Numbered from the stretch's first letter, positions 1 through 16,127 are shown. The stretch: DNA of 27,846 nt from a bacterium (GCA_030649445.1 JAUSKR010000006.1:1-27846); one strand, 5' to 3'. Numbers and translations are program-made. The notes: generated from the letters alone by a model not told the origin.

Positions 1-846
1 TTCACCCGGCATTATATAACCTCCGAACTCGCTGATCTCAAAATTGGATAATTTCTCCGCTTCTCCGCCCGTGCCAACCATGAACCCTGCCTCCTTCAGA
101 AGAGCTTCAATGTACATTCCGTGTGTAACAGCATTTATGATCACATCTTTTTGCAGCGGTGCTTCGTGTCTTTGTCTCATATCGTTATAATGCCGAATAG
201 CCTCAAGCTCATGTTGAAGCTGGTGAGCCAAGCCAATCGCCAAACGGTGGCAAGCCGGTTCGTTGTTCATCAGGTATTCAAAAGCTAGAGGCTGATATTT
301 CTGCCGGATCGGGGCAATCCTCTCCATGACATCAAGAGGTAATTTCTCAATATTTATTCTGAGCCTGCCGTTTTCGTCTTCTTCGTCAGTCCAGCCTTGA
401 TCCGGTTCTATTCTCATCAGTTCTTGCAAAGTTGCCCTCTCGACAATTTTTTTGCCGTTCGGAACTACATCACCCATATCCGGCTGGAGATAATCATACT
501 GAATCCCTGGCACTTCCCTCGTTCCGTATGTTTTATCGGTTAAAGGAGATTTAATCTGGGCTGATGCAGTAATCAATTCGCCGGTTTGTTTTGCTCTGCC
601 GGAACGATGGTCACTCACGCGCGCGGCTAAAACCTCAGCGCTACCCGCCATTCTCTCTCCTTTTTCTTTGGCATGAGCTATCCCCACTTGACTCAGCTGG
701 CCAGAAGGCACTCTCTCAAAATGACGCGTAATCATGAGCTGATACTTCGGTTGGTGCTCGGCTTCGACATCAGCCTCGTGAACAGGCTCATCCGCCCGAA
801 GCTCAGCCGGCTCAGTCTCTCCATGTAGTTCTTGATTAAACCCCAT
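1..846 (-). CDS. Histidine phosphatase superfamily protein, runs off the left edge (not in ORF track)
   Basis: Manual translation from ATG at 846 (GAGGAG SD upstream, 2 nt after the upstream stop) is open for 282 codons: MGFNQELHG...LMITRHFER...SDHRSGRAKQT...INAVTHGMYIEALL. Has the RH motif, a mid Arg and the THG second His. Confidence 0.75.
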   Translation of the reverse strand, partial: MGFNQELHGETEPAELRADEPVHEADVEAEHQPKYQLMITRHFERVPSGQLSQVGIAHAKEKGERMAGSAEVLAARVSDHRSGRAKQTGELITASAQIKSPLTDKTYGTREVPGIQYDYLQPDMGDVVPNGKKIVERATLQELMRIEPDQGWTDEEDENGRLRINIEKLPLDVMERIAPIRQKYQPLAFEYLMNNEPACHRLAIGLAHQLQHELEAIRHYNDMRQRHEAPLQKDVIINAVTHGMYIEALLKEAGFMVGTGGEAEKLSNFEISEFGGYIMPGE

Positions 847-848
847 TT

Positions 849-2345
849 TCAGCTCCTCTTTATTATTTTGACCAAGCCGTGGACTGCATCAACTTCAACT
901 CTGTCGCCGTCCTTTAATATTTTTGTTGCCTGTTTTGTCCCAACAACACATGGTACGCCCAATTCCCGGGCGACAATGGCCGCGTGACAGGTCAAGCCCC
1001 CCATATCAGTTACGAAAGCGGCCGCTTTTTTCATTGCTGGAAAAAGTTTGGGGTTCGTCGAACGCGACACCAGAATATCACCTTCCTCCATTTTAGCCAT
1101 GTCTGGAGTGTCATTTACAATCTTTACCACACCTTCAGCAGTGCCGGCAAAAGCAACTTGACCCCGAACACTATCCTCGCCTCCGATTTTTTCCTCGACA
1201 ATATTGTCTAGAATTGACCCAAGCAAATTATCATCTGTAACTTGGACAACGTCGCCCTGATAATCAAGAATGTAACCATGTTCTATCCTTTTGGATATTT
1301 CTTTTTTATTAATAGCCTTGCCACTGAGCAAGTCTCTGACTTCCCATTCAAACATATTTTTTAACATTTCCAGACTCACGTGCTTCCTTCTAGCCATTTC
1401 AGAAAAAAGAAATTCGACGCAGTAGTAGCTTTCTGCGAACGTACCTTTGCGGAAAAACTTAATCCAAACCATTCCGGCACCATGATGAAAAAACTTTTGA
1501 TCATCTTCGCTGATTTTGTATCTCTCTATGATCTGTAACTTTTTTTGTTTAATCAATTTCTCGGTCTCTTCGTAATTCCTGATTGTTTTCTCAAGTTTTA
1601 ATTTGTCCTTTGATTTCTCGATTATGCGAGTTTTAAATCCCTTAACCGTGATTGGAACACCATCAAAAGTATAATCAAGCCAAGTCCATTTTTCCTCGTG
1701 TAGCCTGATCTTTTCTGCAAGACTTTTCCATCTCTTATCCGCATTCAAATAATCCAAAGCCAAGTGTGATATTTCGAGATCATGCCTTGAAACGTAAGAT
1801 AACTTATCTGGGGAAGTTAGTGTCGAAAAAACCTCTTCACGAGTTTCGTCCTCAATCGGGTATTTTTCCAAGAGACTCTTCAAATGTTTTGTAAAAGTGT
1901 TTGTAAGTTCGATAATTGTCGGGATCGAACTATAATTCCGCATCGAGATAAACTTTTCGATAAAAGTATCATATAAATCAAGCAGCTCTTTGTCCGACTT
2001 TAGCCCGAAATTCATAGTTTGCAGACTTCTGGCAAACACAAGCAATGTCGCTGACCGTTTATCCACCATTTTCTCAACGAGCGGAAAGAATCCCTTGTCC
2101 GAAAGAATTTTTTCTAAAATATGTTCAGAAATTTTCTCATCCTCAGCAGGATCGGTATAAAACTTAAACATCTTATTCGTAATTTCGCAAAACGTTGCTG
2201 TCAATGTCTCACCAATAGACTCTTTGATAAATTTCGTTCTGCTGTGTGTCGCCATCAAAATAGAAAAAACATTCGCTGGTTCTTCATAACTGAGTAGCCA
2301 TTTGAAATCTTTCATTTTGGGCAATAATTTTTCTTGGTCAATCAT
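849..2345 (-). CDS. Variable N-terminal domain + C-terminal PEP-utilising phospho-His swivel domain (paralog 1)
   Basis: C-terminus VTDMGGLTCHAAIVARELGVPCVVGT; no ATP-grasp or TIM-barrel motifs. Confidence 0.9.
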   Translation of the reverse strand: MIDQEKLLPKMKDFKWLLSYEEPANVFSILMATHSRTKFIKESIGETLTATFCEITNKMFKFYTDPAEDEKISEHILEKILSDKGFFPLVEKMVDKRSATLLVFARSLQTMNFGLKSDKELLDLYDTFIEKFISMRNYSSIPTIIELTNTFTKHLKSLLEKYPIEDETREEVFSTLTSPDKLSYVSRHDLEISHLALDYLNADKRWKSLAEKIRLHEEKWTWLDYTFDGVPITVKGFKTRIIEKSKDKLKLEKTIRNYEETEKLIKQKKLQIIERYKISEDDQKFFHHGAGMVWIKFFRKGTFAESYYCVEFLFSEMARRKHVSLEMLKNMFEWEVRDLLSGKAINKKEISKRIEHGYILDYQGDVVQVTDDNLLGSILDNIVEEKIGGEDSVRGQVAFAGTAEGVVKIVNDTPDMAKMEEGDILVSRSTNPKLFPAMKKAAAFVTDMGGLTCHAAIVARELGVPCVVGTKQATKILKDGDRVEVDAVHGLVKIIKRS

Positions 2346-3738
2346 CGGTTCCTTTCGACTTTACTTTTCTGACAATCCCCTTATCAGCGTCAACCTCAAC
2401 TAAATCGCCATCTTCCAACACTTTTGTTGCATTTTTGGTACCAATTATACATGGCTTTTTCATTTCCCTTGCCACAATTGCCGCGTGAGAACTTATTCCG
2501 CCTTCATCTGTGACAAAAGCGCTAGCCATTTTCATAAACGGCAAAAATTCCGGCCGAGTCATACTTGTGACTAAAACATCCCCCCTATTTATCTCTTTTG
2601 CCGCCGAAGAATGAGGATCCAATATGATCTTTACTCTACCAGTAGCAAAACCTCTGGAAGCAATCAAACCTTTCAAAATATCGCCTGATGGCTCTTGGTT
2701 TTCAAGAACACTCTCAACTTGTTTCCATGTTTTTATTCCTTCCTGATAGGAGTAGTATTCGAAATCACCTTCCTTGGTCTTGTAAAGAAAAAAACCCTCT
2801 TCAATTCTCTTCCTTAACTTTCCCTCTGCGACCGCTCCAGCAAAAAAATCTTTGAATTCTTCAGGACGAATTGCATTCACGAGTTCCGTACTTATGTTTT
2901 GCCTCTTCGCAACTTCTCTTAAAATTTTAATCAAACCATAGAGACCTGTATAATTTAGTCTTTTGCGTTCATCTCGCCATTGAGCCAGCAGTGCAAATGG
3001 AGCGAAAGGATTGTCATTCATGCCATACTTCTTAAGTATCGATATTTTATCTATTTTTTCTACAGTTTCGTCAGTTTTTAATTCTTTCAAGTAAAACCCT
3101 ACTAAGTCGTCGTCCATTTCATGATAATTAGAATAATCCATTCCATACCAAAAAAACCTGTCTTTCAATTCTTCATAGGTGACGTGGCCATTCTTCAAGA
3201 TCAATAAGTTTTCATCTAGAGAAGAAATAAAAGACGGCTCACTCGGCATAAGAAGAACCTGAATATCAGAACTATTCATACAGTATTTTTTAGATATTTT
3301 TTCTATTTTTTCCTGATCAACACCAATATCGAAAGAATCTATAAATATTGCGCTGGCCCACATATCCAGATCGACTTTATATATTTCTTCGTAGATATTT
3401 TGGAGCTCTTTGGAATCTACAGTTGAGAGATCTCTTTTGTATATTTTGTGGGCTTGATCTGTTAATTTTAAGTCAACACTCCGCCAGGCGCTAAGCCAAT
3501 CATTTATACCGTCATCGTTGTATTTTTTCAAAAAAGCGTTAGCAGTAATGCGCCAGTTTTCTTCATAAAAGACGGCGCGCATGTAATTATTTTTAAAAAA
3601 CAAAAACCCCTCACCAAAATCACAAGGAAGGTACTTCCTCATCATTTTACTTGTAGTTATGTACGGCAAGGATACTTGAAAAGCGCCACACTTACCTTCT
3701 TGCTTATACAATTTTCTGTTTTTGTCAATTTCAATCAT
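2338..3738 (-). CDS. Variable N-terminal domain + His-swivel (paralog 2)
   Basis: VTDEGGISSHAAIVAREMKKPCIIGT at C-terminus; 8-nt overlap with downstream gene. Confidence 0.9.
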   Translation of the reverse strand: MIEIDKNRKLYKQEGKCGAFQVSLPYITTSKMMRKYLPCDFGEGFLFFKNNYMRAVFYEENWRITANAFLKKYNDDGINDWLSAWRSVDLKLTDQAHKIYKRDLSTVDSKELQNIYEEIYKVDLDMWASAIFIDSFDIGVDQEKIEKISKKYCMNSSDIQVLLMPSEPSFISSLDENLLILKNGHVTYEELKDRFFWYGMDYSNYHEMDDDLVGFYLKELKTDETVEKIDKISILKKYGMNDNPFAPFALLAQWRDERKRLNYTGLYGLIKILREVAKRQNISTELVNAIRPEEFKDFFAGAVAEGKLRKRIEEGFFLYKTKEGDFEYYSYQEGIKTWKQVESVLENQEPSGDILKGLIASRGFATGRVKIILDPHSSAAKEINRGDVLVTSMTRPEFLPFMKMASAFVTDEGGISSHAAIVAREMKKPCIIGTKNATKVLEDGDLVEVDADKGIVRKVKSKGTDD

Positions 3739-3747
3739 AAAATCTTT

Positions 3748-4692
3748 TTAAATACTTAGCGTCGTTATTGGCCGGCTTTGGACAATATAGAATTTACCTT
3801 TCTCATACGCCCATTCGATGTCGCAGGGGAAACCGTAATGTTTTTCGATTTGCAGGCAGATTTTGGCTAGTTCAATAATTCCGCCGTCTGATAATTTCTG
3901 CACTTCGCGCCTACTCTCTGCCACCTCCATCTCAGCCGTACCATTATTCTGACGGACAATTTTAATCGATTGCTCCGAAATGTATTTATCAGTAATTTCC
4001 AAATTTTTCTTATCAACGACATAATTATCCGGTGTGATCAGACCGCCGACAATCGCCTCCCCCAGCCCCCAGCCGGCCTCGAGAACCATTTGATTGTGAT
4101 CCTCCGTCACCGGATGGACGGTGAAGCAAATGCCGGAGACTTCGGACTCGACCATCTTCTGGATGACGACGGCGACGGAAACTTTGTCCTTGTGCATATT
4201 CTTTTCGATGCGATAGAAGATTGCCCGCGGGGTAAAAAGCGACGCCCAACATTTCTGGACATTTTCAAGCAAATTTTCCCTGGTCGTATTTAGATAACTC
4301 TCCAGCTCGCCGGCCCAGGATGCACTGCTACCATCTTCGGCTGTTGCGCTTGAACGAACGGCGACAAATTCAGCGTCCAGTTCAGCAAAATGTTTCAGGA
4401 TCTCAGTTTCAATATCAGCCGGCATTTTTGAATTCAATATAATGCTTTGAATTTCCGCCGAGGCACCATCAACTGAATTGATGTCTTTCTGGTTTACTTT
4501 CGATAAAATTGAATCGATGTCTGCCTCGATCTGGTTTTCCCGCAAAAATTGCTCAAACGACTCCGCCAAAATGACAAAGCCAGGCGGTACTGGAATCCCC
4601 GCACTGGTCATCTCGCCGAGAGACGCACCCTTGCCTCCGGCAATCCCGGCATTACCCTTGCCTAATTTTGAAAAATTTCTGATTAGTTCCAT
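3748..4692 (-). CDS. Stand-alone ATP-grasp (nucleotide-binding) domain of the PEP synthase/PPDK family
   Basis: AGGKGASLG, VPPGF, VAVRSSATAEDGSSASWAG, VQKMV, GLGEAIVGG, DIEWA, IVQSRPIT; protein ends right after RPIT, with no His domain. Confidence 0.93.
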   Translation of the reverse strand: MELIRNFSKLGKGNAGIAGGKGASLGEMTSAGIPVPPGFVILAESFEQFLRENQIEADIDSILSKVNQKDINSVDGASAEIQSIILNSKMPADIETEILKHFAELDAEFVAVRSSATAEDGSSASWAGELESYLNTTRENLLENVQKCWASLFTPRAIFYRIEKNMHKDKVSVAVVIQKMVESEVSGICFTVHPVTEDHNQMVLEAGWGLGEAIVGGLITPDNYVVDKKNLEITDKYISEQSIKIVRQNNGTAEMEVAESRREVQKLSDGGIIELAKICLQIEKHYGFPCDIEWAYEKGKFYIVQSRPITTLSI

Positions 4693-6155
4693 TATTTTGC
4701 CTTTTCAATTATTTTAACCATACCTGTACTGGCATCTACTTCTATTAGATCGCCATCCTTTAATATTTTAGTGGCTTTTTTCGTTCCGATGATGCATAAA
4801 ATACTAAGTTCTCGGGATATAATCGCCGCATGGCAAGTAATTCCGCCCTCATCAGTCACGACGGCCGACGCCTTTCTCACAGCTGATGTAAACTGAGGCG
4901 TTGTCATAGGAGACACAACGATGTCACCGTTCTCCACTTTGGACAAATCGTCCGGCACAAACAATAATCTCGCTCTGCCCCTGACAACATCTCGTTTCCC
5001 CTTGGAAGCAACCACACCTTGGATCAATTCGACAGGACCAGATTCTTCGATAAGTGTATTGAATTCCTTAGCTTTCAGACCAGTATCTATAAATTTAATA
5101 TGATTTTCGACTCCAACCAAAAAACTATTCTTTCGCTGTTTATAGATGTTCTCGATTGAATCTTCTTGATTGCAATTATCTATAATTTCGTTGATATCGA
5201 GGTATTTGAGTTTAACTTTATCTATCCCAAGCGACTCACCATAACGATCCAGCAATTTATCATAAGCGATATGGACGTATGCAGTATATTCTTTTCTATT
5301 GTCCGCCATCATCGTCATAATAATTAGATCGCCCAATAATCTCTGTACCGACTTTCCGATTTTGTATTTTTTGAACAGCTCTTCTTTATTTTTTAAAAGT
5401 TTGTTTTTAGTTGATTTTAAATCAGACAATCTGCTACTCACGCTCTGCAAGCCCCTACCGACAAGATCTTTCAGAACCTTGCGATAATGTTCTTCGTCAT
5501 AAAATGTCGGCCCATCATAACCAAAAGGAATCCAATAATATTTCCTGACCAATCGATTGATTTCATGGTCAATTTTGGAGCCGTTGCCCAAAATTTTAAT
5601 CGCTGATTTCAGAGTGTCAATTTCCTCATTTGCGCTGAAACTGTTTTCACAAGGAGCAGCCAAAAGCTGAAAAACGCTGTCTGACAATACAAAATCTGAT
5701 TTGCTAATTTCTTCATTAATGTAATATTTTAAAGATTCTGCTCCGATATGCCAGGACAGTTCAAGATTGTTGTATTTAAGCCAGGATCTTTTGATATTCA
5801 GGGAGAAATTATTCAGCTCGTCAAATGAAAGGTTCGTCTGACTGTTAATCGCACCAATAGTCTCCAATGCTAACCTTTTCAGATCCTCACCTCTCTTCTG
5901 CTGCTCAATGTTTATGCCGGAAATGTATTTATCGTCATTCATTATCTTCTGCAGAATTGAATTACCAATTTTTTTCAGCTCGTTTGTCGGATAGAGCGCG
6001 GTAACAAAAACTTTATCATGTAGAAAGTAAATATTGGCGAAAGACTGACCACATATTTCTCGAGCCTCCGCACTAGAGTGAACTTCAATGCTCCAATCGG
6101 CTGGCCACGGATAATATTTTCGGGTTCTCAAAATTTTAAAATCTTCTTTTTTCAT
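4692..6155 (-). CDS. Variable N-terminal domain + His-swivel (paralog 3); ORF track extends to a TTG at 6179
   Basis: VTDEGGITCHAAIISREL; ATG at 6155 lies 1 nt after the upstream stop; 1-nt TAATG overlap with the ATP-grasp gene. Confidence 0.88.
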   Translation of the reverse strand: MKKEDFKILRTRKYYPWPADWSIEVHSSAEAREICGQSFANIYFLHDKVFVTALYPTNELKKIGNSILQKIMNDDKYISGINIEQQKRGEDLKRLALETIGAINSQTNLSFDELNNFSLNIKRSWLKYNNLELSWHIGAESLKYYINEEISKSDFVLSDSVFQLLAAPCENSFSANEEIDTLKSAIKILGNGSKIDHEINRLVRKYYWIPFGYDGPTFYDEEHYRKVLKDLVGRGLQSVSSRLSDLKSTKNKLLKNKEELFKKYKIGKSVQRLLGDLIIMTMMADNRKEYTAYVHIAYDKLLDRYGESLGIDKVKLKYLDINEIIDNCNQEDSIENIYKQRKNSFLVGVENHIKFIDTGLKAKEFNTLIEESGPVELIQGVVASKGKRDVVRGRARLLFVPDDLSKVENGDIVVSPMTTPQFTSAVRKASAVVTDEGGITCHAAIISRELSILCIIGTKKATKILKDGDLIEVDASTGMVKIIEKAK

Positions 6156-6156
6156 C

Positions 6157-7215
6157 TCATACCCTTGAATATGCTTCAATCAGTTTGTCTCCTCCAAAAG
6201 ATCCGCTGTAATGTTTTAGCGTCATTTCATAACTCGGAAAAACGTCCTCAATTAGAGCCTTATCTTTAATCCGATCGAGTAATTTGCGATCCGGACGCCA
6301 GTCCATTTCGACAAGATCAAACAATTTCTTTAGTTGATAATGTTCCTGAAAAACAAATTTTATTTTTTGATCTTCGAAATTCATCCCGAGATATTTCTCA
6401 AATTGCTCCGCCGCAATCGGCATCACTTTTTCTCTAAAATCTCTCAGTTTGTCCAGATTATCCAATTTTTTACCATCAACCTCGACATTATATCTCGTCA
6501 AATTGTTCACTGTGTTGTCAGTGTATGTGATGTGGCATCCAACGAAGGCAATCTTCGCATCAATATTTTTGTAGGTAGTGATAATCGAAACATCCTTAAA
6601 ATCCCAAACGATTTTCGGCCAGATATCCTTGGGATTTAGATCTGGAAAAGAACGAAGTAGTATCATCTCATCATCGATTTTGTAAGGACCTGTAATCTCG
6701 TAGTCAAAATCAGTACACCAATCGTTGTAAAGACCATGAGTAAGAGACGCTAGGGCGACCAAAATCTTGCCAATCTCACGAGATTCCTCCTGAGAAGCCG
6801 GCTTGAGCTGATGATTTTCTAATTTTTTTCTAACTTCATCGTCAGCATACTCGATATTTTTATCATAGGCGAACAAATCTTCTTTTGACCGTAATTTGAG
6901 TGATTTAACAAAAAAAGTTTGAATCGTCGTTACCATTTCTGGGTTCTCGACTTTTGAAAGATGATAATGAATCATATCCATCAAAATGATGAATCGGGTG
7001 GAAGAAAGGTTGGGAAATAGTTCAAGGCAATCTTCGATTTTAAGATCTTTATTTTCAAAAGCCAAAATCATTTCATAAATTTTTTCAAGCCAGAGATCGC
7101 TGTAATGCGGAAGCAAGCCCCATGCATCGAAGGGCAGATGAGACGCCGGATCATGATTTGTAAATAATTGGTAGGATGATCTTAAAAACGGATCAATCCA
7201 ATCAGGCTTCTTCAT
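6157..7215 (-). CDS. Hypothetical protein, 352 aa, soluble
   Basis: Long ORF coupled on both sides (ATGA overlap upstream); no motif recognised. Confidence 0.8.
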   Translation of the reverse strand: MKKPDWIDPFLRSSYQLFTNHDPASHLPFDAWGLLPHYSDLWLEKIYEMILAFENKDLKIEDCLELFPNLSSTRFIILMDMIHYHLSKVENPEMVTTIQTFFVKSLKLRSKEDLFAYDKNIEYADDEVRKKLENHQLKPASQEESREIGKILVALASLTHGLYNDWCTDFDYEITGPYKIDDEMILLRSFPDLNPKDIWPKIVWDFKDVSIITTYKNIDAKIAFVGCHITYTDNTVNNLTRYNVEVDGKKLDNLDKLRDFREKVMPIAAEQFEKYLGMNFEDQKIKFVFQEHYQLKKLFDLVEMDWRPDRKLLDRIKDKALIEDVFPSYEMTLKHYSGSFGGDKLIEAYSRV

Positions 7216-8123
7216 TCTGATGCCTCACTATTACTTTGTGTGTCATCTTGATTATCAATCACCTTTTGAAAACGATCGCCATATGTAAAAGTAACAGAAT
7301 CTTCTTGGATACCGAGAGATATCGTTTCAGTTTCTCTCATCGTGCCGCCGAATGATTCGAAAGTCTCAGGTCTCATCTGCCCGCCATCCGCGAGGTACAC
7401 CGCTAAAGCGTCTAGATTCACCGCATGACCGACAAAGACAATTTCAGTCGGCCGATCACCGATATACTTTCTAGTAAATTCGTGAAGGCGCCTGATGCTC
7501 TTGAGTTGATTCTCAGCGACGGCTCTTGGATCTGGTCCATGGATGCTGTCTTCGCCAACCTGTAAAACACCACCTTCGTTTCGGAAATTTTCCAACCAAA
7601 ATTTTATTGCTTCATCATCATTATTACCAGCTCTTTTTTGAATTTCACTATAGTAAGGCATCTTGCCTTCTGCGTCAGTCCAAACTCCGCGCACACCGAA
7701 TCCAGCCATTGCAAGTGGCGCTACAACCACCACTTTTTCATCAGGATGCGTTCTGACTGATTCAGCAGTAGATCTGACACTTTCTCCGATACTCGCTCCA
7801 GTCGAAACAACTTCGTCTTCGCCAATGACTTCTATATCTAGAGCATCATCCTCTGTTATTAATTTTTCCAGTTCATCGCCATAGACTCGCAATGTGGATT
7901 TGCTTCGGACTAATTCGGAGGCTCCGGCAAGGAAAAAAACGGTTCCTTCCGGCGCTGACTTAATATGCTCCAAGATTGCTCGGGCTCTTGTTTGCGCAAG
8001 TTCGACACCTCCTTCCGTGATGCCGGGATATTCCGGAGACTCCGTCCCTCTCCCTGCTTTAAAACTTTTAGTGTGCCTTGTTCCTAAAAATTGGATGTCA
8101 TCTGGAGTTAAGCCTTCACTCAT
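7212..8123 (-). CDS. Histidine phosphatase superfamily protein
   Basis: FLGTRHTKS (RH motif), ASELVRSKST, IVFVGHAVNLDAL (second His). Confidence 0.7.
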   Translation of the reverse strand: MSEGLTPDDIQFLGTRHTKSFKAGRGTESPEYPGITEGGVELAQTRARAILEHIKSAPEGTVFFLAGASELVRSKSTLRVYGDELEKLITEDDALDIEVIGEDEVVSTGASIGESVRSTAESVRTHPDEKVVVVAPLAMAGFGVRGVWTDAEGKMPYYSEIQKRAGNNDDEAIKFWLENFRNEGGVLQVGEDSIHGPDPRAVAENQLKSIRRLHEFTRKYIGDRPTEIVFVGHAVNLDALAVYLADGGQMRPETFESFGGTMRETETISLGIQEDSVTFTYGDRFQKVIDNQDDTQSNSEASE

Positions 8124-8458
8124 ACTTCCTCCTCAATTAAATAAATCTTGCCATTTTTTCCGTCTACTCTAACAAGCATACCATCTTTCAAAACAGTAGT
8201 GGCAACTTTCGTTGAAACGACACATGGAGTGCCCATTTCTCGCGACACAATCGCTGGATGCGAAGTTAGGCCTCCAACATCAGTCACGATCGCTGCCGCC
8301 TTCGCCATCATCATAATCATCGTCGGATTAGTTAATTTAGTCACCAAAATTTCTCCGTCCTGAAAATTCGGCGCATCAGCACTAGAATGCACAATCCGAA
8401 CACGACCAGTCGCCTCGCCAATGCTTGCCGCAATTCCTGTCAAAATTTCTTTTTCCAT
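8120..8458 (-). CDS. Stand-alone phospho-His swivel (PEP-utiliser mobile) domain, 112 aa
   Basis: GIAASIGEATGRV...VTDVGGLTSHPAIVSREMGTPCVV; GAGGAG SD upstream. Confidence 0.9.
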   Translation of the reverse strand: MEKEILTGIAASIGEATGRVRIVHSSADAPNFQDGEILVTKLTNPTMIMMMAKAAAIVTDVGGLTSHPAIVSREMGTPCVVSTKVATTVLKDGMLVRVDGKNGKIYLIEEEV

Positions 8459-8472
8459 TACACTCCTCTTCT

Positions 8473-8550
8473 TTAAAACTCACAATTTGTTACTTTTGCA
8501 ATCCCGGCATCATCTTTGCCAAGTTTTGAAAAATTTCTGATTAATTCCAT
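8473..8550 (-). pseudogene. Truncated duplicate of the 5' end of the ATP-grasp gene (25 aa)
   Basis: MELIRNFSKLGKDDAGIAKVTNCEF*; 16/18 aa and 47/54 nt identical to the start of 3748..4692; AAGGA SD upstream. Confidence 0.85.
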
Positions 8551-8564
8551 CTTTTCCTTAATTC

Positions 8565-8573
8565 TGATATGAT
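8565..8573 (+). promoter_or_regulatory. Extended -10 promoter candidate for hairpin unit 1
   Basis: TG-a-TATGAT, 7 nt before ATCACGATGAGAG; -35 poor. Confidence 0.45.
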
Positions 8574-8579
8574 TACACC

Positions 8580-8636
8580 ATCACGATGAGAGCAGGTTCA
8601 TGATGTTTTGTCTTCATGTAATTGGCTCTCTTTTTT
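8580..8636 (+). ncRNA. Candidate small RNA unit 1
   Basis: ATCACGATGAGAG leader, GAGAGC/GCTCTC outer stem, CATGA/TCATG inner stem, T6 tail. Confidence 0.45.
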
Positions 8637-8659
8637 GTTCTACATCATTAAATTTTCTA

Positions 8660-8688
8660 TTGACATTCTTCTTTTGATCTAGTAAAAT
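8660..8688 (+). promoter_or_regulatory. Sigma70 promoter for hairpin unit 2
   Basis: TTGACA-17 bp-TAAAAT. Confidence 0.7.
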
Positions 8689-8698
8689 TCTAGCTAGA

Positions 8699-8754
8699 AT
8701 CACGATGAGAGGACTACCAAAGGGTTTCGTCCCGAGGGAATGCCTCTCTTTTTT
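8699..8754 (+). ncRNA. Candidate small RNA unit 2
   Basis: Same 13-nt leader as unit 1, GAGAGG/CCTCTC stem, inner GGG/CCC hairpin, T6 tail. Confidence 0.5.
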
Positions 8755-8769
8755 ATTGCCGCCTGACCA

Positions 8770-8797
8770 TTGACAATACAATATTATTTGATACAAT
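8770..8797 (+). promoter_or_regulatory. Sigma70 promoter for hairpin unit 3
   Basis: TTGACA-16 bp-TACAAT with TG-n extension. Confidence 0.65.
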
Positions 8798-8803
8798 TGT
8801 AAC

Positions 8804-8863
8804 ATCATCAGGGAGAAAACGAGCCTCTAGCCACGTGCTAGATGAGTGCACGCCTCCCTTTTT
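8804..8863 (+). ncRNA. Candidate small RNA unit 3, antisense to the NYN gene 3' end
   Basis: ATCATCAGGGAG leader, AGGGAG/CTCCCT stem, TCTAGC/GCTAGA inner stem, T5 tail; spans the NYN stop codon. Confidence 0.5.
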
Positions 8864-9467
8864 GTTTTCCCAATAATCTTCTTTCATCCTCAATAAAAAC
8901 TTTGAATTTGTTGAACGGTTCAAGCAATTTTGACATTGATTTCTTGTTTGGAATAATAATCTTATGCAATTTGCCGTTCTCTTCTAGAAACTGATGTAAG
9001 CAAGTGAAGTCTCCATCACCAGAAGCTATAACAGCTTTGTCATAGTTTTTATACTCAATTGCGACACAATGTAAAACTAATTCGGCGTCAACGTTACCTT
9101 TCGGCTTGCCAAAGCTGTCCTTGACTGTTTTTTTATAGATTAAATCATACCCAGATCGCGATAAATACGAGTAAAGCTCTTTATTCTCACTGATGTAGCC
9201 GATGAACAAAAAAGCTTTCGAGACCCGGAACTTATCCTCGAGATAAACCCTGAATTTTCTAAAATCCAATTCCCAGCCATGATAGATCTTTTTATTGTGC
9301 CTGATAATGTCCTTCTTCGTTCCCAAATTCAAATTCTGGCTATCAATAAAAGCATAGACAATGTCTTTGTGTTTGGTTCCTCTCCTTTGCAAGGAGAGGT
9401 CAGAGCCTGCCCTGAGCGAAGCAGGGCGAAGTCGAATAGGTGAGGTTTTTTTCTTTTGTGCTGGCAT
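8838..9467 (-). CDS. NYN domain (LabA/DUF88, PIN-like) putative RNase; ORF track start 9554, likelier ATG 9467
   Basis: YAFIDSQNL, KGNVDAELVL, VIASGDGDF motifs. Confidence 0.88.
   Translation of the reverse strand: MPAQKKKTSPIRLRPASLRAGSDLSLQRRGTKHKDIVYAFIDSQNLNLGTKKDIIRHNKKIYHGWELDFRKFRVYLEDKFRVSKAFLFIGYISENKELYSYLSRSGYDLIYKKTVKDSFGKPKGNVDAELVLHCVAIEYKNYDKAVIASGDGDFTCLHQFLEENGKLHKIIIPNKKSMSKLLEPFNKFKVFIEDERRLLGKQKGRRALI
9378..9445 (-). repeat. Nested REP-like palindromic elements inside the NYN 5' coding region
   Basis: CCTCACC...ACCTCTCCTTGCAAAGGAGAGG matches the repeat at 25541 but is split by a 36-nt TTCGACTTCGC..CTCAGGGCAGG hairpin. Confidence 0.7.
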
Positions 9468-9470
9468 TAT

Positions 9471-9510
9471 TTGTAAACAAAATAAATTGATTTGTAAACT
9501 AATTGTAAAC
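9471..9510 (-). promoter_or_regulatory. Three GTTTACAA direct repeats upstream of NYN
   Basis: TTGTAAAC on + at 9471, 9492 and 9503 (21 and 11 bp spacing). Confidence 0.45.
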
Positions 9511-9611
9511 TGATTATTACTGGGATTGTGGATAAATTTATTAAACACCGGCATTCCCGGCGATTTTATCGGGATCTTATGCTCGAAATGTGGATTTTGA
9601 AATTTGAAGGG

Positions 9612-10541
9612 CTAGACCTCAATTCCAAGCAAATATGTCATTAAGGCTAGGCAAATTTCCGTGTGCAGTTCCTTTTTTGAATAAATTGCTCTCGGATCGC
9701 TATCGACGGCTGTGTCAATTTCAAATATCCGAGGTGTAATCATTTCCAGAAAAGCGTCTGGCCGAAGCTTTTTCATATGTTCTGTTGTGATCGGCTTATA
9801 GCTCTTGAGAATTAATTCCTCTTTCTCTTTTGGAAACATATTCTCCGGAATAATCCCTTTCTGAAGCCCTCGCGTCACAATCAAAATGTCAACATCGCCG
9901 ATAAAGTCGTCGACTTTGCCATATTTCAGCTCAGCCAATCCATTGGCTTTTGCCAAATCTTCGACCTCCTTTGGCAATGGAAAATGGCCGAGGTCATCAA
10001 TGATCAATTTGGTCTGATACAAGCCCAAGATAGGCACATATGCCTTACAGACCCGGTTAATTTCCGGCGTCCCGTAAATGCCGACTTTCAAGCCTTCCAA
10101 CTTGCCAAGATAGTGACGCATATTCATCAGCATCATCAAGGTGCCGACGGCATGCTCGCGTGAGCCACAGCCACAATTCATAACCGGAACTCGAGAGACT
10201 TCTGCCGCTCTTTCAGCTGCATCATCGTCACCATGTCGTAAAGCAATCGCATCGCAATATCCACCATAAGTCCGGATTGTGTCTTCGAGACTCTCACCTT
10301 TGGCCATTGATATTCCGTCCGTACCAGTGACACCAATCCAGCCACCGCCGGCTCTAAGCAGAGCTGATTGGAATCCATTCATCGTCCGAGTTGACGGCTG
10401 GAAAAAGAGCGTCGAAACAATTTTTCCTCGCATCAAATCAGGTGAGATACCTTCTGTTAGAAATTTCTCCCCTCGAGTTACAATCTCATCAAAGTCTGAT
10501 TTAGTAAAATCTTTTGTCGAAACCAAATGTTTGACTGACAT
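9612..10541 (-). CDS. Divergent aspartate/ornithine carbamoyltransferase-family protein (PyrB-like)
   Basis: FFQPSTRT, KGESLEDT, IALRH, NRV, VTRGLQK; HPTQ replaced by HAVG and HPLP by ITPR. Confidence 0.85.
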   Translation of the reverse strand: MSVKHLVSTKDFTKSDFDEIVTRGEKFLTEGISPDLMRGKIVSTLFFQPSTRTMNGFQSALLRAGGGWIGVTGTDGISMAKGESLEDTIRTYGGYCDAIALRHGDDDAAERAAEVSRVPVMNCGCGSREHAVGTLMMLMNMRHYLGKLEGLKVGIYGTPEINRVCKAYVPILGLYQTKLIIDDLGHFPLPKEVEDLAKANGLAELKYGKVDDFIGDVDILIVTRGLQKGIIPENMFPKEKEELILKSYKPITTEHMKKLRPDAFLEMITPRIFEIDTAVDSDPRAIYSKKELHTEICLALMTYLLGIEV

Positions 10542-11920
10542 TATGCCTCACTTTCTGGCTGATTGACAAAGTGTTGAGCAAAATTCGCATAAATTTCAGC
10601 TAAATCAACGGTTGAATTCGGATCAACCCGAAAATCCGGCGCGTGATGCGGACCGGTTGGGATGCCTTCAGCAGGATTTGCCCCACCAACCTGAACAAAA
10701 ACACCGTTTATTTGCCTACCGCGTAATAATTCAAGATAGGTCGAGAAATCTTCACCGGCAAACATGACCTGATCAGATTGAGGCGATAATTGGTAGTTAG
10801 GCAGAACCTCACTGGCCGCTTCTCTGACCATATGTACAAGTTCTGCGTCCCGATGGATAACCGGCCGATAGCCCTGACGAGGCACAACTTCGATGTCCTC
10901 TTTTCCAAGTCCGCTTCGAACCGCCTCTTCCTGAACAATAGTTCTGATCTGGTTTAAAGCATCTTTAGAAATTTCTCGGTAGAGGGGATCCGCAATCCTG
11001 ACCACCCAGGTGCTCTCTCCTTGAGCTGGTAAAACATTATAACCCTTGCCCGAAAATTCCGTTCGGCCGGAAGCAATCAGACCCTTTTTCTGCTCGTAAA
11101 TTGGCCGGAAAACTTCGTCAAGCCGAACTGTTAGGCGGGAAAAAATAACATTCAAATTTGGTATCTCATAAGCGTTCATTATATGCCCGCCTGAGGCATG
11201 TAGTTTTATCTCGATTTCGCCCGAGCTCGCCATATGAACGCCTTCTTTGACCCGAATCATTCCTCTCTCTATACTCCGAAATACGTGGAGCCCAAGGAAA
11301 GCCCCAATCTTATCGCGCCAGCCATTTTCCTCAAGGAATCTGACTATTTGGACTGCGCCACTTTCCTTTTGATGCGTCTTTTCCTCGCTCGGCTGAAAAA
11401 TTAGCAGAACATCTCCATCTAATTGGCCTTTTTGTGCTAACTCCTGCAACATTTTGGCGGCACCGAGAAGACTGGCTGTGTGAACATCATGACCGCAACC
11501 ATGCATTTTACCGTCAACGGCCGAACGAGGTTCATTCGTGCCAACTTCCTGGACGGGTAACGCGTCCATGTCTGCTCTTAAAGCGACAGTTTTGCCGTTG
11601 CCATTCCCTCGAATCAGTCCGACGACACCTGTGCCACGAAAATGATCTTCACCCTCACCAGTACTTAGGCCGATATTTTGTCCGATAACCTCAATCCCCA
11701 GACTTCGTAAATATTCCACAACTTTGCCGGCGGTTCGGACCTCTTCCCCACCAAGTTCCGGATTTTTATGAATATCTGTCTGAATATCGATCATCTCCGG
11801 TGCTAACTCAGCGGCTCTTTCGCGGATATAATTTGTAGCCTCCGCTTCTGCCGTCTCCACTTCGTGTTCATCGCTACGCTCAACGTCTCTTCCAAAATCT
11901 TCTGACCCTGTCTCTGTCAT
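10541..11920 (-). CDS. M20 family amidohydrolase (M20D/hippurate hydrolase-like)
   Basis: ALRADMDALP, MHGCGHDVH, IFQPSEE, GLHV, GEDFS, PHHAPDF. Confidence 0.92.
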   Translation of the reverse strand: MTETGSEDFGRDVERSDEHEVETAEAEATNYIRERAAELAPEMIDIQTDIHKNPELGGEEVRTAGKVVEYLRSLGIEVIGQNIGLSTGEGEDHFRGTGVVGLIRGNGNGKTVALRADMDALPVQEVGTNEPRSAVDGKMHGCGHDVHTASLLGAAKMLQELAQKGQLDGDVLLIFQPSEEKTHQKESGAVQIVRFLEENGWRDKIGAFLGLHVFRSIERGMIRVKEGVHMASSGEIEIKLHASGGHIMNAYEIPNLNVIFSRLTVRLDEVFRPIYEQKKGLIASGRTEFSGKGYNVLPAQGESTWVVRIADPLYREISKDALNQIRTIVQEEAVRSGLGKEDIEVVPRQGYRPVIHRDAELVHMVREAASEVLPNYQLSPQSDQVMFAGEDFSTYLELLRGRQINGVFVQVGGANPAEGIPTGPHHAPDFRVDPNSTVDLAEIYANFAQHFVNQPESEA

Positions 11921-11962
11921 AGATTCTCCTTCCTGACTCTTAATAAAATTAATAGAACTTAT

Positions 11963-13345
11963 TCATTTTATTTTAATGACAGTGCCCTTGTCCGCATCCA
12001 CTTCGATTATATCACCATCTTTTAAGACTTGTGTGGCGGTTTTGGTGCCGATGATGCAGGGAATGCCAAGCTCGCGGGCAACGATAGCGGCGTGGCAGGT
12101 GATGCCGCCTTCGTCGGTGACAATAGCACTGGATTTTTTCATAATCGGCAGAAATTCCGGATGAGTCATTGTTGTAACTAATATATCGCCTTCCTTAAAT
12201 TTAGCAAATTCACCCTGATGGTAAATGATCGAAACTTTTCCGGTTGCGACACCTCGGCTGGCGATCATGCCCCGGAGATCCGAGCTTGATTCCGGCAACA
12301 TTTTATTGCCCATCTCGACTGCTGACTGGCCTGAAAAAATTTCCAATTTGCCATCATTTAAAATGTAAGCAAACGATTCTTGACGAGCCGCGAGCTCTTC
12401 TTTGCCGATGACAGATTTACTCGCTGATATCGATGCCAGCACCTCGTCAAGAGACAAAAAATTAATCTCGTCGAAGCTCAGTCCAATAACTGAAGCCAGT
12501 TTTGTCAAAAATGGCTGTAGTATCCAGTAGGCTCTACGGCGATAATCGTCTCGCATTTCCTTGAGATAGGAAAAGTAATGGACAATCTCGACCAGTTTTT
12601 TGAAATCATTGTCTTCTATTGTGTCCAAATACTTTCGATATGCTGCTAAATTTTCACTTTGGCTTTTTTCGGCTCGCGATAGTTCGTCTTCTGGGTTTTT
12701 AATTTGCTCGTATTGCTCCAGAAAATCACCCTCTGTCCACGGCTTATCAAGCGGCTCATAGACTGGAATCCAAGCGTATTTTGTGGCATAATAATTCAAT
12801 TTGCTTCTGTCTTTTTCCGCCGCGATTTTTAATAGTTCGAGGTGAGCCCGAGTAATCTGCGTGTGTTTATATGGAGTCGTAATAATTTGCATCAACTTTT
12901 CGCCTTCAGGCGTGATTGACAGCTTATCCTCTAGCTCAGTAGCTGGACCCAGCAAGACCGCAAATGCATAAAACTGGTAAGTGGCTGAGTAAATAATTTC
13001 GTCTTTTAATCTATTGAGCAGGGTGCGAAGACCATCTCTGTCTAAATCATCGGGGTTGATATTTTTAATATTCTCAGCAAACAAAAGTAGCTTTTCTATC
13101 TCTTTCTCATATGCGACCGAGTACTCTGCCATATCCTGTTTTCGAAGAAAATTTTCGTAGTTTTTAACTAAAGCATCAATCTCTGACTTCTCGCAATAGT
13201 AAGCCATCAAATTGCCTTCCGGCACGAATAGTTTATTGCCGCAATAGCCAAACTGCCGGTCTTTGACAAAGAACATCATAAAAGCCGATGCCACAAACGG
13301 CGAATATTTCCGTGCCCACAGGCGTTCCCATTTCATTTCTGTCAT
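11963..13345 (-). CDS. Variable N-terminal domain + His-swivel (paralog 4)
   Basis: VTDEGGITCHAAIVARELGIPCIIGT. Confidence 0.9.
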   Translation of the reverse strand: MTEMKWERLWARKYSPFVASAFMMFFVKDRQFGYCGNKLFVPEGNLMAYYCEKSEIDALVKNYENFLRKQDMAEYSVAYEKEIEKLLLFAENIKNINPDDLDRDGLRTLLNRLKDEIIYSATYQFYAFAVLLGPATELEDKLSITPEGEKLMQIITTPYKHTQITRAHLELLKIAAEKDRSKLNYYATKYAWIPVYEPLDKPWTEGDFLEQYEQIKNPEDELSRAEKSQSENLAAYRKYLDTIEDNDFKKLVEIVHYFSYLKEMRDDYRRRAYWILQPFLTKLASVIGLSFDEINFLSLDEVLASISASKSVIGKEELAARQESFAYILNDGKLEIFSGQSAVEMGNKMLPESSSDLRGMIASRGVATGKVSIIYHQGEFAKFKEGDILVTTMTHPEFLPIMKKSSAIVTDEGGITCHAAIVARELGIPCIIGTKTATQVLKDGDIIEVDADKGTVIKIK

Positions 13346-14799
13346 ATTTTCCTCACAGTTCCTTTATCTGAATCGACTTCAACCATGTCGCCGTTTTTGA
13401 ACACCTGCGTTGCTGTTTTTGTACCAACGACACATGGAATACCAAATTCTCGGCTGACAATAGCAGCGTGTGACAGCATCCCACCCTCATTTGTCACAAT
13501 TGCCGCCGCTTTTTTCATCAGCGGCAGATAGTCGGGCCGAGTTGCACTCGCGACTAAAATGTTGCCGTCCTTAAATAATCCGAAATCTCGATTACTCAGA
13601 ACAACCGAAACAGGCGCGGTCACTTTGCCCGGATTGACTCCAAATCCTTTTATCTCAACCACTTCTTTTCTCTCCAGTATAGTACTGATAGCACCAACAA
13701 CCTCTGGGTCTGAAATAATATTTATCTTGTTATCGGCGCAGTAAAAGACTGAATTAGTGACTCTCTGCCTAATCTCTGCCAGGATTAGAACGGAGTTACC
13801 CTCCAAAAGCTCGGCGATCTCCTCCGCCGTCAGAAACAAAACTTCATCGAGAGTCAGGTTCGTTCGACGAGATATCTCTTTAAATAAAGGCTGGATCAAA
13901 TAGTTGGCCGTGTCTCTGGTATATGGTTTCTGTTCCTTTAGGAAGGGGAAACGAGAATAGATATCTAGTAGATTGTAAAATTTTTTGTCTTTGCGATATT
14001 TCCAGATGATCTGTTTCGTCTCACGGGAGTGATATTTTTTTTCAAGCTCCGCTATCTCCTGTTTGATTTCAGCTCGAGTTTTGGACACGATAATTTGAGC
14101 CAATTCATCTCGAAAATATTCGAGCGAGTGAGATGCGTAGTTAATATCGTACATCGGCATATAAGCAAACTTAGCATGGTGTTTTCCCAGTGCCTTCTGA
14201 CGCTTGCCCTCAGGCAAGAACGCGATTTTCAACATGGAAAAGTGTTCGCGGTCGAGAGCAATCATTTTGTGAGGACGAGACAAGGATCGAAGATTGGCTT
14301 CAACCTCCGGCTTCGAAAGACAGTAATTGTCTGTAAAAATTTCGATAACTGTCTTTGTCAGCGTCTCTTCAAAATGATTGTAGATAATCCAATACGATCC
14401 TTCGACGATCCGATCTAAATCATAAAATTTTTGTAAAAATTCAACCAAGACTCGATTCGAGTATTTAGCATAATTTTTCGGCAATTTCCTGATCTGTCCT
14501 AGATACCGTTCAAAGCTTCGCTCGACGGCATTACTCAATGCGGACAACCAATGATTTGAGTGATTGCTAAGCAATAGTTTTTTGATCGCACTCTTTATCT
14601 CCTCGAGATCGGCGCTATCGTGCCACTGCGAGAAATCCCCGTTCACATTTCGATACAAGATCGGAAGTTCACCGGCGATCTTAAATATTCGCTTGAACTC
14701 ACCAGTCAAACCAAAATAATACAGCCTGACCTTCTGATAGGTCATCCGTCTCGTCCCCTCGAATTTCCAATTCAATTTTTTAATCTCTTCGATGTTCAT
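13342..14799 (-). CDS. Variable N-terminal domain + His-swivel (paralog 5)
   Basis: VTNEGGMLSHAAIVSREFGIPCVVGT; ATGA overlaps at both ends. Confidence 0.9.
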   Translation of the reverse strand: MNIEEIKKLNWKFEGTRRMTYQKVRLYYFGLTGEFKRIFKIAGELPILYRNVNGDFSQWHDSADLEEIKSAIKKLLLSNHSNHWLSALSNAVERSFERYLGQIRKLPKNYAKYSNRVLVEFLQKFYDLDRIVEGSYWIIYNHFEETLTKTVIEIFTDNYCLSKPEVEANLRSLSRPHKMIALDREHFSMLKIAFLPEGKRQKALGKHHAKFAYMPMYDINYASHSLEYFRDELAQIIVSKTRAEIKQEIAELEKKYHSRETKQIIWKYRKDKKFYNLLDIYSRFPFLKEQKPYTRDTANYLIQPLFKEISRRTNLTLDEVLFLTAEEIAELLEGNSVLILAEIRQRVTNSVFYCADNKINIISDPEVVGAISTILERKEVVEIKGFGVNPGKVTAPVSVVLSNRDFGLFKDGNILVASATRPDYLPLMKKAAAIVTNEGGMLSHAAIVSREFGIPCVVGTKTATQVFKNGDMVEVDSDKGTVRKI

Positions 14800-16127
14800 T
14801 TGATAATCTTGACAATCCCCTTATCCGCATCGACTTCGACCATATCACCGTCCTTCAAAATTTTGGTCGCGTTTTTGGTGCCTACTACGCAAGGTTTTTT
14901 CATCTCTCTGGCGATGATCGCGGCGTGACAGGTGATCCCACCCTCGTCCGTGACAAAAGCCGCCGCTTTTTGCATTGCCGAGATAAATGACGGAAACGTC
15001 ATCTGCGCCACCAAAATATCGCCTTTTTTAACTTTATCCAGCTCTGTAGAATGAGTTACGACCTTGGCAATACCCCTAGCTTTTCCGCTATAAGCGATCT
15101 TACCCTTAATTTTATCAGAAGAAACCTGAACAAGATCAGGAATTAAAACTTCGTTGGAGATAATGTAATCATCACCTAGAGAGGCATAGCAAAAATTCCG
15201 CTCATATCTCCGTGGCTGTCCAAACATAATTGAGTTTGCGTCATACGACGCCAATTCCTTGAAAGTAACGCCGACATGACCCGCCACTTCTTCCAGAAAC
15301 GGTCTGGCAAGACCAAAAAATTCATAGAGTTTATCGGTCCGGTCGGTCCGGAAAAATGTTAACTCCTGCAATTCTGTCGCTAGATCCTGCAGCTCGACGG
15401 GGATTTTGACTTCAATCTTATGTGGTTTCGTATGATTCTTCCTAATTTCCTCAAGCTCATCGATGGTATAGAAATCAGTAAAGCCGTCTCTTGATTTCAT
15501 CCAGCCAAATTTCTGCTGAATCTCCGTGAGATCAGTACCATTTTCAAGCTCGTCCTGCATCAAGGTGTAGGCGTTTTTCTTCTTTGGCACGCTTATATCG
15601 CCAACAAATTTATCGATATCACCACTAAAATATTTAGGTACTTCATGCTCGACTCGTTCAGTAAAATGCGCTTCAAGTGGAATATTTATCCAGAGAAAAA
15701 CAGTGTAATTGCATGACAAATCTGAAAAGGCAAGCAATCTTTCAGAGATAGGATTATGATGGTCTTGCGTCAATTCACGCAGTTTTTTCAAATTATCTTC
15801 TTGCATCCGATCTAGAAGTCTGGTTACATCCGCCATTTTGTGAGTTTGAAAAAAATCGGCAAAATAGGATTTGCCATGTTCGGCAAACTTTTCATCGTAA
15901 TAAAGATCGGGGTGAGAATAAAAGTGATCGTCCGCTCCGATACCAGGAAATCCGTTCCGGCTAAAAAATTCCCCGTTTACCCCGCGCCAATGGCTTGTCA
16001 CCATAAAAACAGTTTGAGGCCGGTTGACCCAAGATTTCCACTTAATTTGTTTAATTTGTTCGATAAAATTAACCCTCTCGCTCTCTGGGATGAATCGAAA
16101 TTTATTTTGTATTTCAGTCTTAAGCAT
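14796..16127 (-). CDS. Variable N-terminal domain + His-swivel (paralog 6); ORF track extends to a TTG at 16160
   Basis: VTDEGGITCHAAIIAREMKKPCVVGT; ATG at 16127 preceded by AAGGTG SD. Confidence 0.88.
   Translation of the reverse strand: MLKTEIQNKFRFIPESERVNFIEQIKQIKWKSWVNRPQTVFMVTSHWRGVNGEFFSRNGFPGIGADDHFYSHPDLYYDEKFAEHGKSYFADFFQTHKMADVTRLLDRMQEDNLKKLRELTQDHHNPISERLLAFSDLSCNYTVFLWINIPLEAHFTERVEHEVPKYFSGDIDKFVGDISVPKKKNAYTLMQDELENGTDLTEIQQKFGWMKSRDGFTDFYTIDELEEIRKNHTKPHKIEVKIPVELQDLATELQELTFFRTDRTDKLYEFFGLARPFLEEVAGHVGVTFKELASYDANSIMFGQPRRYERNFCYASLGDDYIISNEVLIPDLVQVSSDKIKGKIAYSGKARGIAKVVTHSTELDKVKKGDILVAQMTFPSFISAMQKAAAFVTDEGGITCHAAIIAREMKKPCVVGTKNATKILKDGDMVEVDADKGIVKIIK

Follow-up and report, generated by a model that had tools for sequence, protein, structure and literature searches.

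What is the role of three consecutive small-RNA units that lie antisense to an operon and next to a gene for a NYN nuclease? The question is raised by a stretch of Patescibacteria DNA of 27,846 nt (JAUSKR010000006.1; the whole stretch is called the window below), which belongs to an assembly of 0.59 Mb that is 71% complete. Between 8565 and 8863 of the + strand, opposite a minus-strand operon, three units follow one another, each made up of a promoter, a hairpin RNA of about 57 nt and a U tract. A first-pass annotation had taken them for an array of antitoxin, decoy or guide RNAs with a constant scaffold and a variable core. Sequence comparison now identifies them as three separate predicted genes of one conserved small-RNA family. 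The family comprises two sequence classes and is, by the same comparison, constantly partnered with a clade of NYN (LabA-like, PIN-fold) nucleases of ~170 aa. Unit 3 is the predicted cognate partner of the NYN gene in the window, and units 1 and 2 are assigned to the class whose partners elsewhere are NYN genes of the other clade. This three-unit, mixed-class array is the new point of the locus.

Layout of the three units

The units and the NYN gene are arranged as follows.

8565-8573, + strand: unit 1 promoter, an extended -10 of the form TG-n-TATGAT (TGaTATGAT) with a weak -35, TTCCAT, at 8545-8550; read directly
8580-8636, + strand: unit 1 RNA, 57 nt, a diverged class-1 NYN-partner RNA without a NYN gene of its own
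8660-8688, + strand: unit 2 promoter, TTGACA-17-TAAAAT, matching the consensus at 11/12 positions
8699-8754, + strand: unit 2 RNA, 56 nt, an intact class-1 NYN-partner RNA without a NYN gene of its own
8770-8797, + strand: unit 3 promoter, TTGACA-16-TACAAT with TG before the -10, matching the consensus at 11/12 positions
8804-8863, + strand: unit 3 RNA, 60 nt, a class-2 NYN-partner RNA, predicted cognate of the adjacent NYN gene
8838-9467 or 8838-9554, - strand: NYN (LabA-like, PF01936) nuclease gene with its start ATG at 9467 or 9554; Pfam NYN match at E 2.8e-14

The succession of promoter, AUCA, hairpin and U tract, the RNA lengths of 57, 56 and 60 nt and the three promoters all agree in every detail with the first-pass annotation. 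AUCA forms the first nucleotides of all three RNAs and begins 6 nt past the end of the -10 in units 1 and 3 and 10 nt past it in unit 2; unit 1 is within the 6-8 nt usual in the family and unit 2 just beyond. Each RNA is predicted to form one long hairpin, with folding energies of -16.9, -17.9 and -16.9 kcal/mol for units 1, 2 and 3 (z = -2.9 for unit 1), and a T run follows each of the three hairpins on the + strand only. The 13-mer common to units 1 and 2, ATCACGATGAGAG, is present in exactly two copies in the whole assembly, at 8580 and 8699, as had been claimed. Reading of the open reading frames (ORFs) at the locus likewise bore out that no + strand protein gene accounts for the promoters of the three units.

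The unit 3 RNA gene overlaps the NYN gene by 26 nt, covering the NYN stop codon and the last seven codons. Read on the NYN strand, at 8826-8842, the apical hairpin of unit 3 holds the NYN stop and is followed by a U-rich run, GGCUCGUUUU. The site has a weakly terminator-like look and, to judge from its sequence, could end the NYN mRNA inside the unit 3 RNA gene.

One RNA family with two classes

The relatedness of the units was measured with two covariance models: R1, for class 1, with a seed of seven unit-2-like copies, and R2, for class 2. R1 scores unit 2, a seed member, at 78 bits, as compared with 5.8 bits for the reverse strand of the same unit. Unit 1, which was not in the seed, scores 46.0 bits (E 1e-13), near the middle of the range of bona fide partners. 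R2 scores unit 3, a seed member, at 58.6 bits. Throughout the family the RNA takes the form of a single long hairpin whose 5' strand is rich in purines and whose internal and apical loops are conserved. It ends in a U-tract terminator of its own, and this terminator, coming from the opposite strand, reaches up to or into the NYN stop codon.

Several lines of evidence point to a structured RNA encoded on this strand. Stem positions covary in the homologues, with 110 pair cells changed on both sides versus 27 in shuffles. The fraction of paired cells is 87%, as against 43-58% when the partners are slid, and the apical stem of class 2 covaries as well. Among the model pairs, G:U combinations outnumber A:C (38 vs 13), which favours the RNA strand. 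A promoter matching the sigma-70 consensus at 10/12 positions or more and ending 6-8 nt before AUCA is found at 59/72 loci, and at 0/72 on the opposite strand. Downstream of the outer stem there is a U tract at 56/61 loci on the RNA strand, as compared with 0/61 on the NYN strand. Being confined to the RNA strand, these tracts show that the hairpins are not terminators of the NYN or operon strand, an option that the first-pass annotation had kept in view together with a lack of covariation.

The RNA is more conserved than the coding DNA of its neighbour. In class 2, identity is 79% for the RNA and 66% for the NYN coding DNA; in class 1 the values are 64% and 59%. The cassette ends at the promoter, and the flanks beyond it fall to 33% identity and are unalignable. 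The loops of both classes are conserved across phyla, with invariant loop nucleotides, over more than 80 loci. The notion of a constant scaffold around a variable core is not supported, as the interiors form two conserved classes.

Within this frame the three units differ in their histories. Unit 1 keeps the class-1 5' tail, outer stem, UUUUGU loop and UAAU and has lost one near-invariant G-C pair; no relatives of its interior were found in 162 genomes of the class. Copies of unit 2 can be recognised in further genera and families of the order, where each again has a promoter and a U tract to itself, and a 59-nt stretch of unit 2 is identical to the RNA that adjoins the NYN gene of another genus (G006). 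Exactly 8698-8754 recurs, without a single difference, in library contigs from oil-field, aquatic and sediment samples whose flanks are unrelated to the window; that the identity ends exactly there marks the limits of constraint, not of transcription. Unit 3 is 98% identical in another genome of the order, G001, where it also adjoins a NYN gene.

The family appears to be undescribed. Rfam 15 gave nothing relevant over 8300-9100, even at E<=10, in line with the earlier statement that no named RNA family fits, and gave no match at the equivalent RNA of 10 other loci. Full-text literature searches on NYN proteins with small RNAs or antitoxins turned up no description of a NYN-small-RNA pair.

A two-hairpin variant was seen at two loci, L110 (G032 C58, 1501-1600) and L112 (G037 C4). 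There the class-2 RNA has no U tract of its own and runs into a second hairpin, GGGAGGC...GCCTCTC, which bears the terminator. The variant at L110 adjoins only a 35-aa NYN remnant.

Linkage of the RNA to NYN genes

In the window's order, sampled with 44 genomes (G000-G043), R1 detects the RNA in 13/44 genomes, a distribution too patchy for a housekeeping RNA; 11 of its 14 matches are convergent with a ~170-aa NYN gene and lie at its 3' end. Starting from the protein, each of the 17 NYN genes of the order that score at least 220 bits, the family cut-off, is faced at its 3' end by a convergent RNA of class 1 or class 2, and no NYN gene of the family was found there without the RNA.

The association extends well beyond the order. 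A search of one-genome-per-species collections with the NYN alignment returned at least 577 loci, and the best 80 of these were examined for the RNA. At least 77 of the 80 have it (class 1 in 43, class 2 in 34); the RNAs at the 77 loci all lie on the strand opposite to NYN, directly behind the stop codon. The NYN family reaches Patescibacteria, Chloroflexota, Omnitrophota, Planctomycetota, Nitrospirota, Elusimicrobiota, WOR-3 and others. Relative to the RNA gene, the median position of the NYN stop is 2-5 nt inside, with a range of -30 to +55 and one outlier at +131; at the DNA level the stop is inside the RNA gene in 61/74 loci.

The RNA, by contrast, also occurs without NYN. RNA-only loci were found in G011, G024, G027, G029 and G032, the last of which has no NYN gene and retains, beside the RNA, a 35-aa remnant of the NYN C-terminus. 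Three predicted viral contigs (IMG/VR L192, L194 and L211) carry the class-1 RNA and no NYN gene in the stretch examined, and two others (L279 and L280) carry a complete NYN-plus-RNA cassette. No class-2 RNA was found in viral contigs among 29 seed hits, and no NYN gene of this family in cultured phages and plasmids. Within the phylum the distribution is patchy, at about 30/150 sampled Patescibacteria. Some genomes hold several copies of the cassette. Its insertion contexts are unrelated, and at most loci it stands outside operons; in the window it is within one.

The NYN protein and its two clades

The AlphaFold model of the window's NYN protein has a mean predicted local distance difference test score (pLDDT) of 93.9, and its best structural matches are 2QIP, which the sequence also matches, and the NYN domain of MARF1. 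All residues invariant in the family are kept, including the core D11, D96, D120 and D122. With a confidently modelled NYN fold and the invariant acidic residues in place, the protein looks like an intact enzyme. PADLOC gave a weak match only, to a LabA-like NYN model; PHROGs and NCBIfam gave none. The start codon is uncertain, since most relatives begin only ~8 residues before the NYN core. The N-terminal extension (9378-9467, - strand) contains two in-frame hairpin-like inserts, GCCCTG..CAGGGC and CCTCTCC..GGAGAGG.

A maximum-likelihood tree built from 91 NYN sequences puts class-1 partners on one side of a single branch and class-2 partners on the other, with support 100/91; the window's protein falls in the class-2 clade. 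A basic insertion of 10-11 aa after the NLNLG motif is present in 42/43 class-2 partners; in the predicted model it forms a beta-hairpin beside the first catalytic aspartate. The tree cuts across phyla. Together with the patchy distribution, the unrelated contexts and the several copies per genome mentioned above, this means that the cassette behaves like a selfish or defence module.

A mixed-class array

The units had been regarded as equivalent members of one array, a description that does not survive the assignment of unit 3 to class 2, cognate to NYN, and of units 1 and 2 to class 1. No class-1 NYN gene was found in the assembly at its 71% completeness, and no NYN remnants lie between the units. 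Two RNA genes stacked behind one NYN gene are found at L067 and in G293, G191 and G295, and G001 also has a stack; a stack of three was seen only in the window. On G001 C1, in a genome of the same genus, NYN is followed by a class-2 RNA and then by a class-1 RNA of another subtype, beside an insertion sequence (IS) integrase gene.

Adjoining unit 1, at 8494-8564 on the - strand, an ATP-grasp (PPDK N-terminal-like) gene is represented by an 18-codon head, which breaks off immediately ahead of the free swivel gene described in the last section; this head is ~90% identical to that of an intact gene on G001 C27. On that contig, close to its end, a class-2 RNA stands immediately against the matching ATP-grasp head, and class-1 units are absent. 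It follows from the two G001 arrangements that the orphan slots turn over.

A proposed RNA antidote and its rivals

The RNA is found without NYN, whereas NYN of this family was not once seen without the RNA; a toxin and its antidote would be expected to show this asymmetry. Given this asymmetry and the intact appearance of the enzyme, we therefore put the chance that the cassette is a toxin-antitoxin-like system with an RNA antidote slightly above even. Under this reading the NYN protein would be a toxic ribonuclease, and the window would hold one toxin, its own antidote (unit 3) and two orphan antidotes (units 1 and 2). The orphans could be leftovers of cassette turnover, or they could protect against class-1 NYN toxins arriving on mobile elements. 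The RNA might act in either of two ways: by pairing with the NYN mRNA at its complementary 3' end and triggering decay of that mRNA, as in type I systems, or by binding the NYN protein in its folded form and blocking it, as in type III systems. Because of the overlap with the stop codon, the RNA is necessarily complementary to the NYN mRNA at the 3' end of the latter, which speaks for the antisense mode. The conservation of the loops and 5' tail across phyla, beyond that of the gene, speaks for protein binding, because cis-antisense pairing needs no such conservation. The two modes need not exclude each other. Among the roles first suggested for the RNAs, antitoxin or decoy is thus favoured by the comparative data, and guide is disfavoured, the cores not being free spacers.

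A number of observations weigh against an antidote. NYN.COG1432 is listed with function unknown in a survey of the PIN superfamily (PMC5499597). The rule that NYN never occurs without the RNA would fit an obligatory RNA cofactor equally well, and the split between RNA classes and NYN clades, being a single event, may reflect co-inheritance and not co-evolution. With the genome only 71% complete, a class-1 NYN gene may lie in its unassembled part. Unit 1, with its weak -35 and its broken conserved pair, may be decaying. Complementarity and duplex energies between the RNA and the NYN 5' region were no better than with shuffled targets. The sequencing runs that hold the window are DNA runs only, and the RNA-library contigs with unit 2 do not show transcription, since they run into flanking DNA-like sequence and may be DNA or read-through.

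A wider claim can be built on the antidote reading. The NYN-RNA cassettes would then constitute a large new family of RNA-antidote toxins or anti-phage defence systems, present in Patescibacteria and at least 10 other phyla, in which the ~57-nt RNA directly neutralises NYN in a class-specific manner. Heterotypic arrays would serve as 'immunity libraries' against NYN toxins of other clades that mobile elements bring in, and the RNA-only copies on viral contigs as counter-defence. Taken as a whole we consider this less likely than not.

Two other roles for a genuine RNA were weighed against the antidote. The RNA could be an obligatory cofactor, scaffold or activator of NYN, the two forming a ribonucleoprotein enzyme, possibly a defence effector, with the additional units providing dosage or alternative scaffolds. 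The obligate presence of the RNA beside NYN, the strong conservation of its unpaired nucleotides, the way in which RNA class tracks NYN clade and the basic insertion of the class-2 partners would all suit such an arrangement. It accords poorly with RNA-only loci in NYN-less genomes and in viral contigs, with the lack of a variable guide segment, with the retention of class-1 units beside a class-2 NYN and with a convergent, overlapping layout that is atypical of known RNA-protein enzymes; we consider it unlikely. Alternatively, the RNAs could be plain cis-antisense regulators or insulators that tune NYN, itself no toxin, their head-on promoters damping read-through into the downstream dikinase-like operon. 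The convergent layout over the stop codon agrees with this, as does the terminator-like site at 8826-8842, and a read-through transcript would carry the complements of all three units because all lie between NYN and the next minus-strand gene. Such regulators need no conserved primary sequence, yet the loops and 5' tail are conserved across phyla, above the identity of the coding DNA; moreover, orphan RNA genes lie far from any NYN gene and at most loci the cassette is not inside an operon. We judge this explanation to be distinctly unlikely.

The remaining alternatives fare worse. A guide-RNA array, in which a constant scaffold presents variable cores that target phage or host sequences, was suggested by the three differing interiors within the window. 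Over the larger set of loci, however, the interiors resolve into the two classes, whose loops contain invariant nucleotides, unrelated organisms carry unit 2 without a difference, and a search for a trans target of the 5' tail found the complement of its 10-mer at 3 other genome sites, all inside ORFs, versus ~1 expected; guides are thus very improbable here. We give hardly any credence to the idea that the units are not RNA genes at all, and instead are terminators or repetitive extragenic palindromic (REP)-like elements of the minus-strand operon or micro-peptide coding sequences. The hairpins do sit between minus-strand genes, and unit 2 has an ATG-led frame of 22 codons; against this stand the U tract on the + strand only, the near-consensus promoters at a fixed distance and the covarying base pairs. 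The micro-ORF was rejected on its own account as well: neither its ATG nor its frame is conserved in homologues, several of which have ATA or early stops.

Comparison with known systems

Convergent RNAs that overlap at their 3' ends are known from type I toxin-antitoxin loci such as txpA/RatA and bsrG/SR4 of Bacillus subtilis and the par locus of pAD1 (Fst, RNA I / RNA II). As in these, a small, strongly promoted RNA is aimed at the 3' end of a putative toxin gene, a shared terminator region makes the transcripts complementary there (in our case at the DNA level), and the cassettes are compact, mobile and patchy. Type I toxins are small hydrophobic membrane peptides, whereas the partner here is a soluble NYN protein of ~170-240 aa with a core of ~170 aa. 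The cross-phylum conservation of the loops and 5' tail is another difference, as antisense pairing alone does not require it. Unlike in par, no further site of pairing with the NYN mRNA was found at its 5' end.

Type III toxin-antitoxin and abortive infection systems include ToxIN, CptIN, TenpIN and AbiQ-antiQ, and phage PhiTE carries a pseudo-ToxI decoy. ToxI-type antitoxins are tandem direct repeats of 34-36 nt that lie upstream of the toxin on the same strand, with a terminator in between, and are processed by the toxin. The present cassette shares with them the pairing of an endoribonuclease-type protein with a structured RNA and, in the window, multiple adjacent RNA copies. The RNA-only copies in predicted viral contigs recall pseudo-ToxI, as would be expected of a counter-defence decoy. 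In contrast to type III, the RNAs are encoded as individual genes that converge on NYN and have a promoter and a terminator each, the units belong to different classes, and the NYN fold is unrelated to ToxN/AbiQ. By analogy, then, the system resembles a type I-like layout combined with a type III-like RNase-type protein, and it misses a defining feature of each.

Genes for orphan antitoxins or immunity proteins are known as 'anti-addiction' modules and from the immunity-gene arrays of polymorphic toxin systems. The resemblance lies in putative antidotes kept without a matching toxin, stacked by a complete pair and differing in specificity class. The known orphans are proteins; those in the window are ~57-nt RNA genes whose protective role we infer.

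On the protein side, LabA-like NYN proteins (NYN.COG1432; 2QIP VPA0982; the MARF1 NYN domain, 5YAA) have the same fold and conserved acidic residues as the present family. Many LabA-like proteins carry an OST-HTH RNA-binding domain, which the small stand-alone NYN considered here lacks. Among PIN-fold proteins without a known function, the LabA-like NYN proteins are some of the most abundant, and none is described as having an RNA partner (PMC5499597). With a constant, structured RNA as their partner, these proteins acquire a biology that can be tested.

If the RNA is an antidote, the cassettes would represent a new RNA-antitoxin family that joins a type I layout to an enzyme toxin and is common in ultra-small uncultured bacteria. 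To our knowledge, regulatory RNAs are almost unknown in these organisms. The mixed-class array would offer a natural test of specificity, namely of which RNA neutralises which NYN clade, and suggests that a collection of RNA antidotes can be built up from orphan genes.

The SRP RNA and the neighbouring genes

The RNA of the signal recognition particle (SRP) occurs in essentially every genome and has a GNRA-type tetraloop and conserved helix-8 loops. A divergent SRP RNA was considered as an identity of the family because no SRP RNA model matches any genome of the order: neither RF00169 (41 genomes) nor RF01854 (21 genomes) gave a match there, and both match control genomes. This identity is ruled out by the 13/44 patchiness and the NYN linkage, and RF00169 does not match the RNA. 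The SRP RNA of this Patescibacteria order is either very divergent or missing.

On the side opposite to NYN, the units are flanked by the following gene.

8120-8458, - strand: free PEP-utilizer swivel gene

An aspartate/ornithine carbamoyltransferase-like gene that flanks the cassette has no close orthologue in the order (best ~30% identity), so that no empty-site comparison is available to define the cassette ends. In 1-16127 of the window, the minus-strand operon encodes several PEP-utilizer swivel-domain paralogues, the carbamoyltransferase-like protein and an M20 peptidase, with the NYN cassette in mid-operon.
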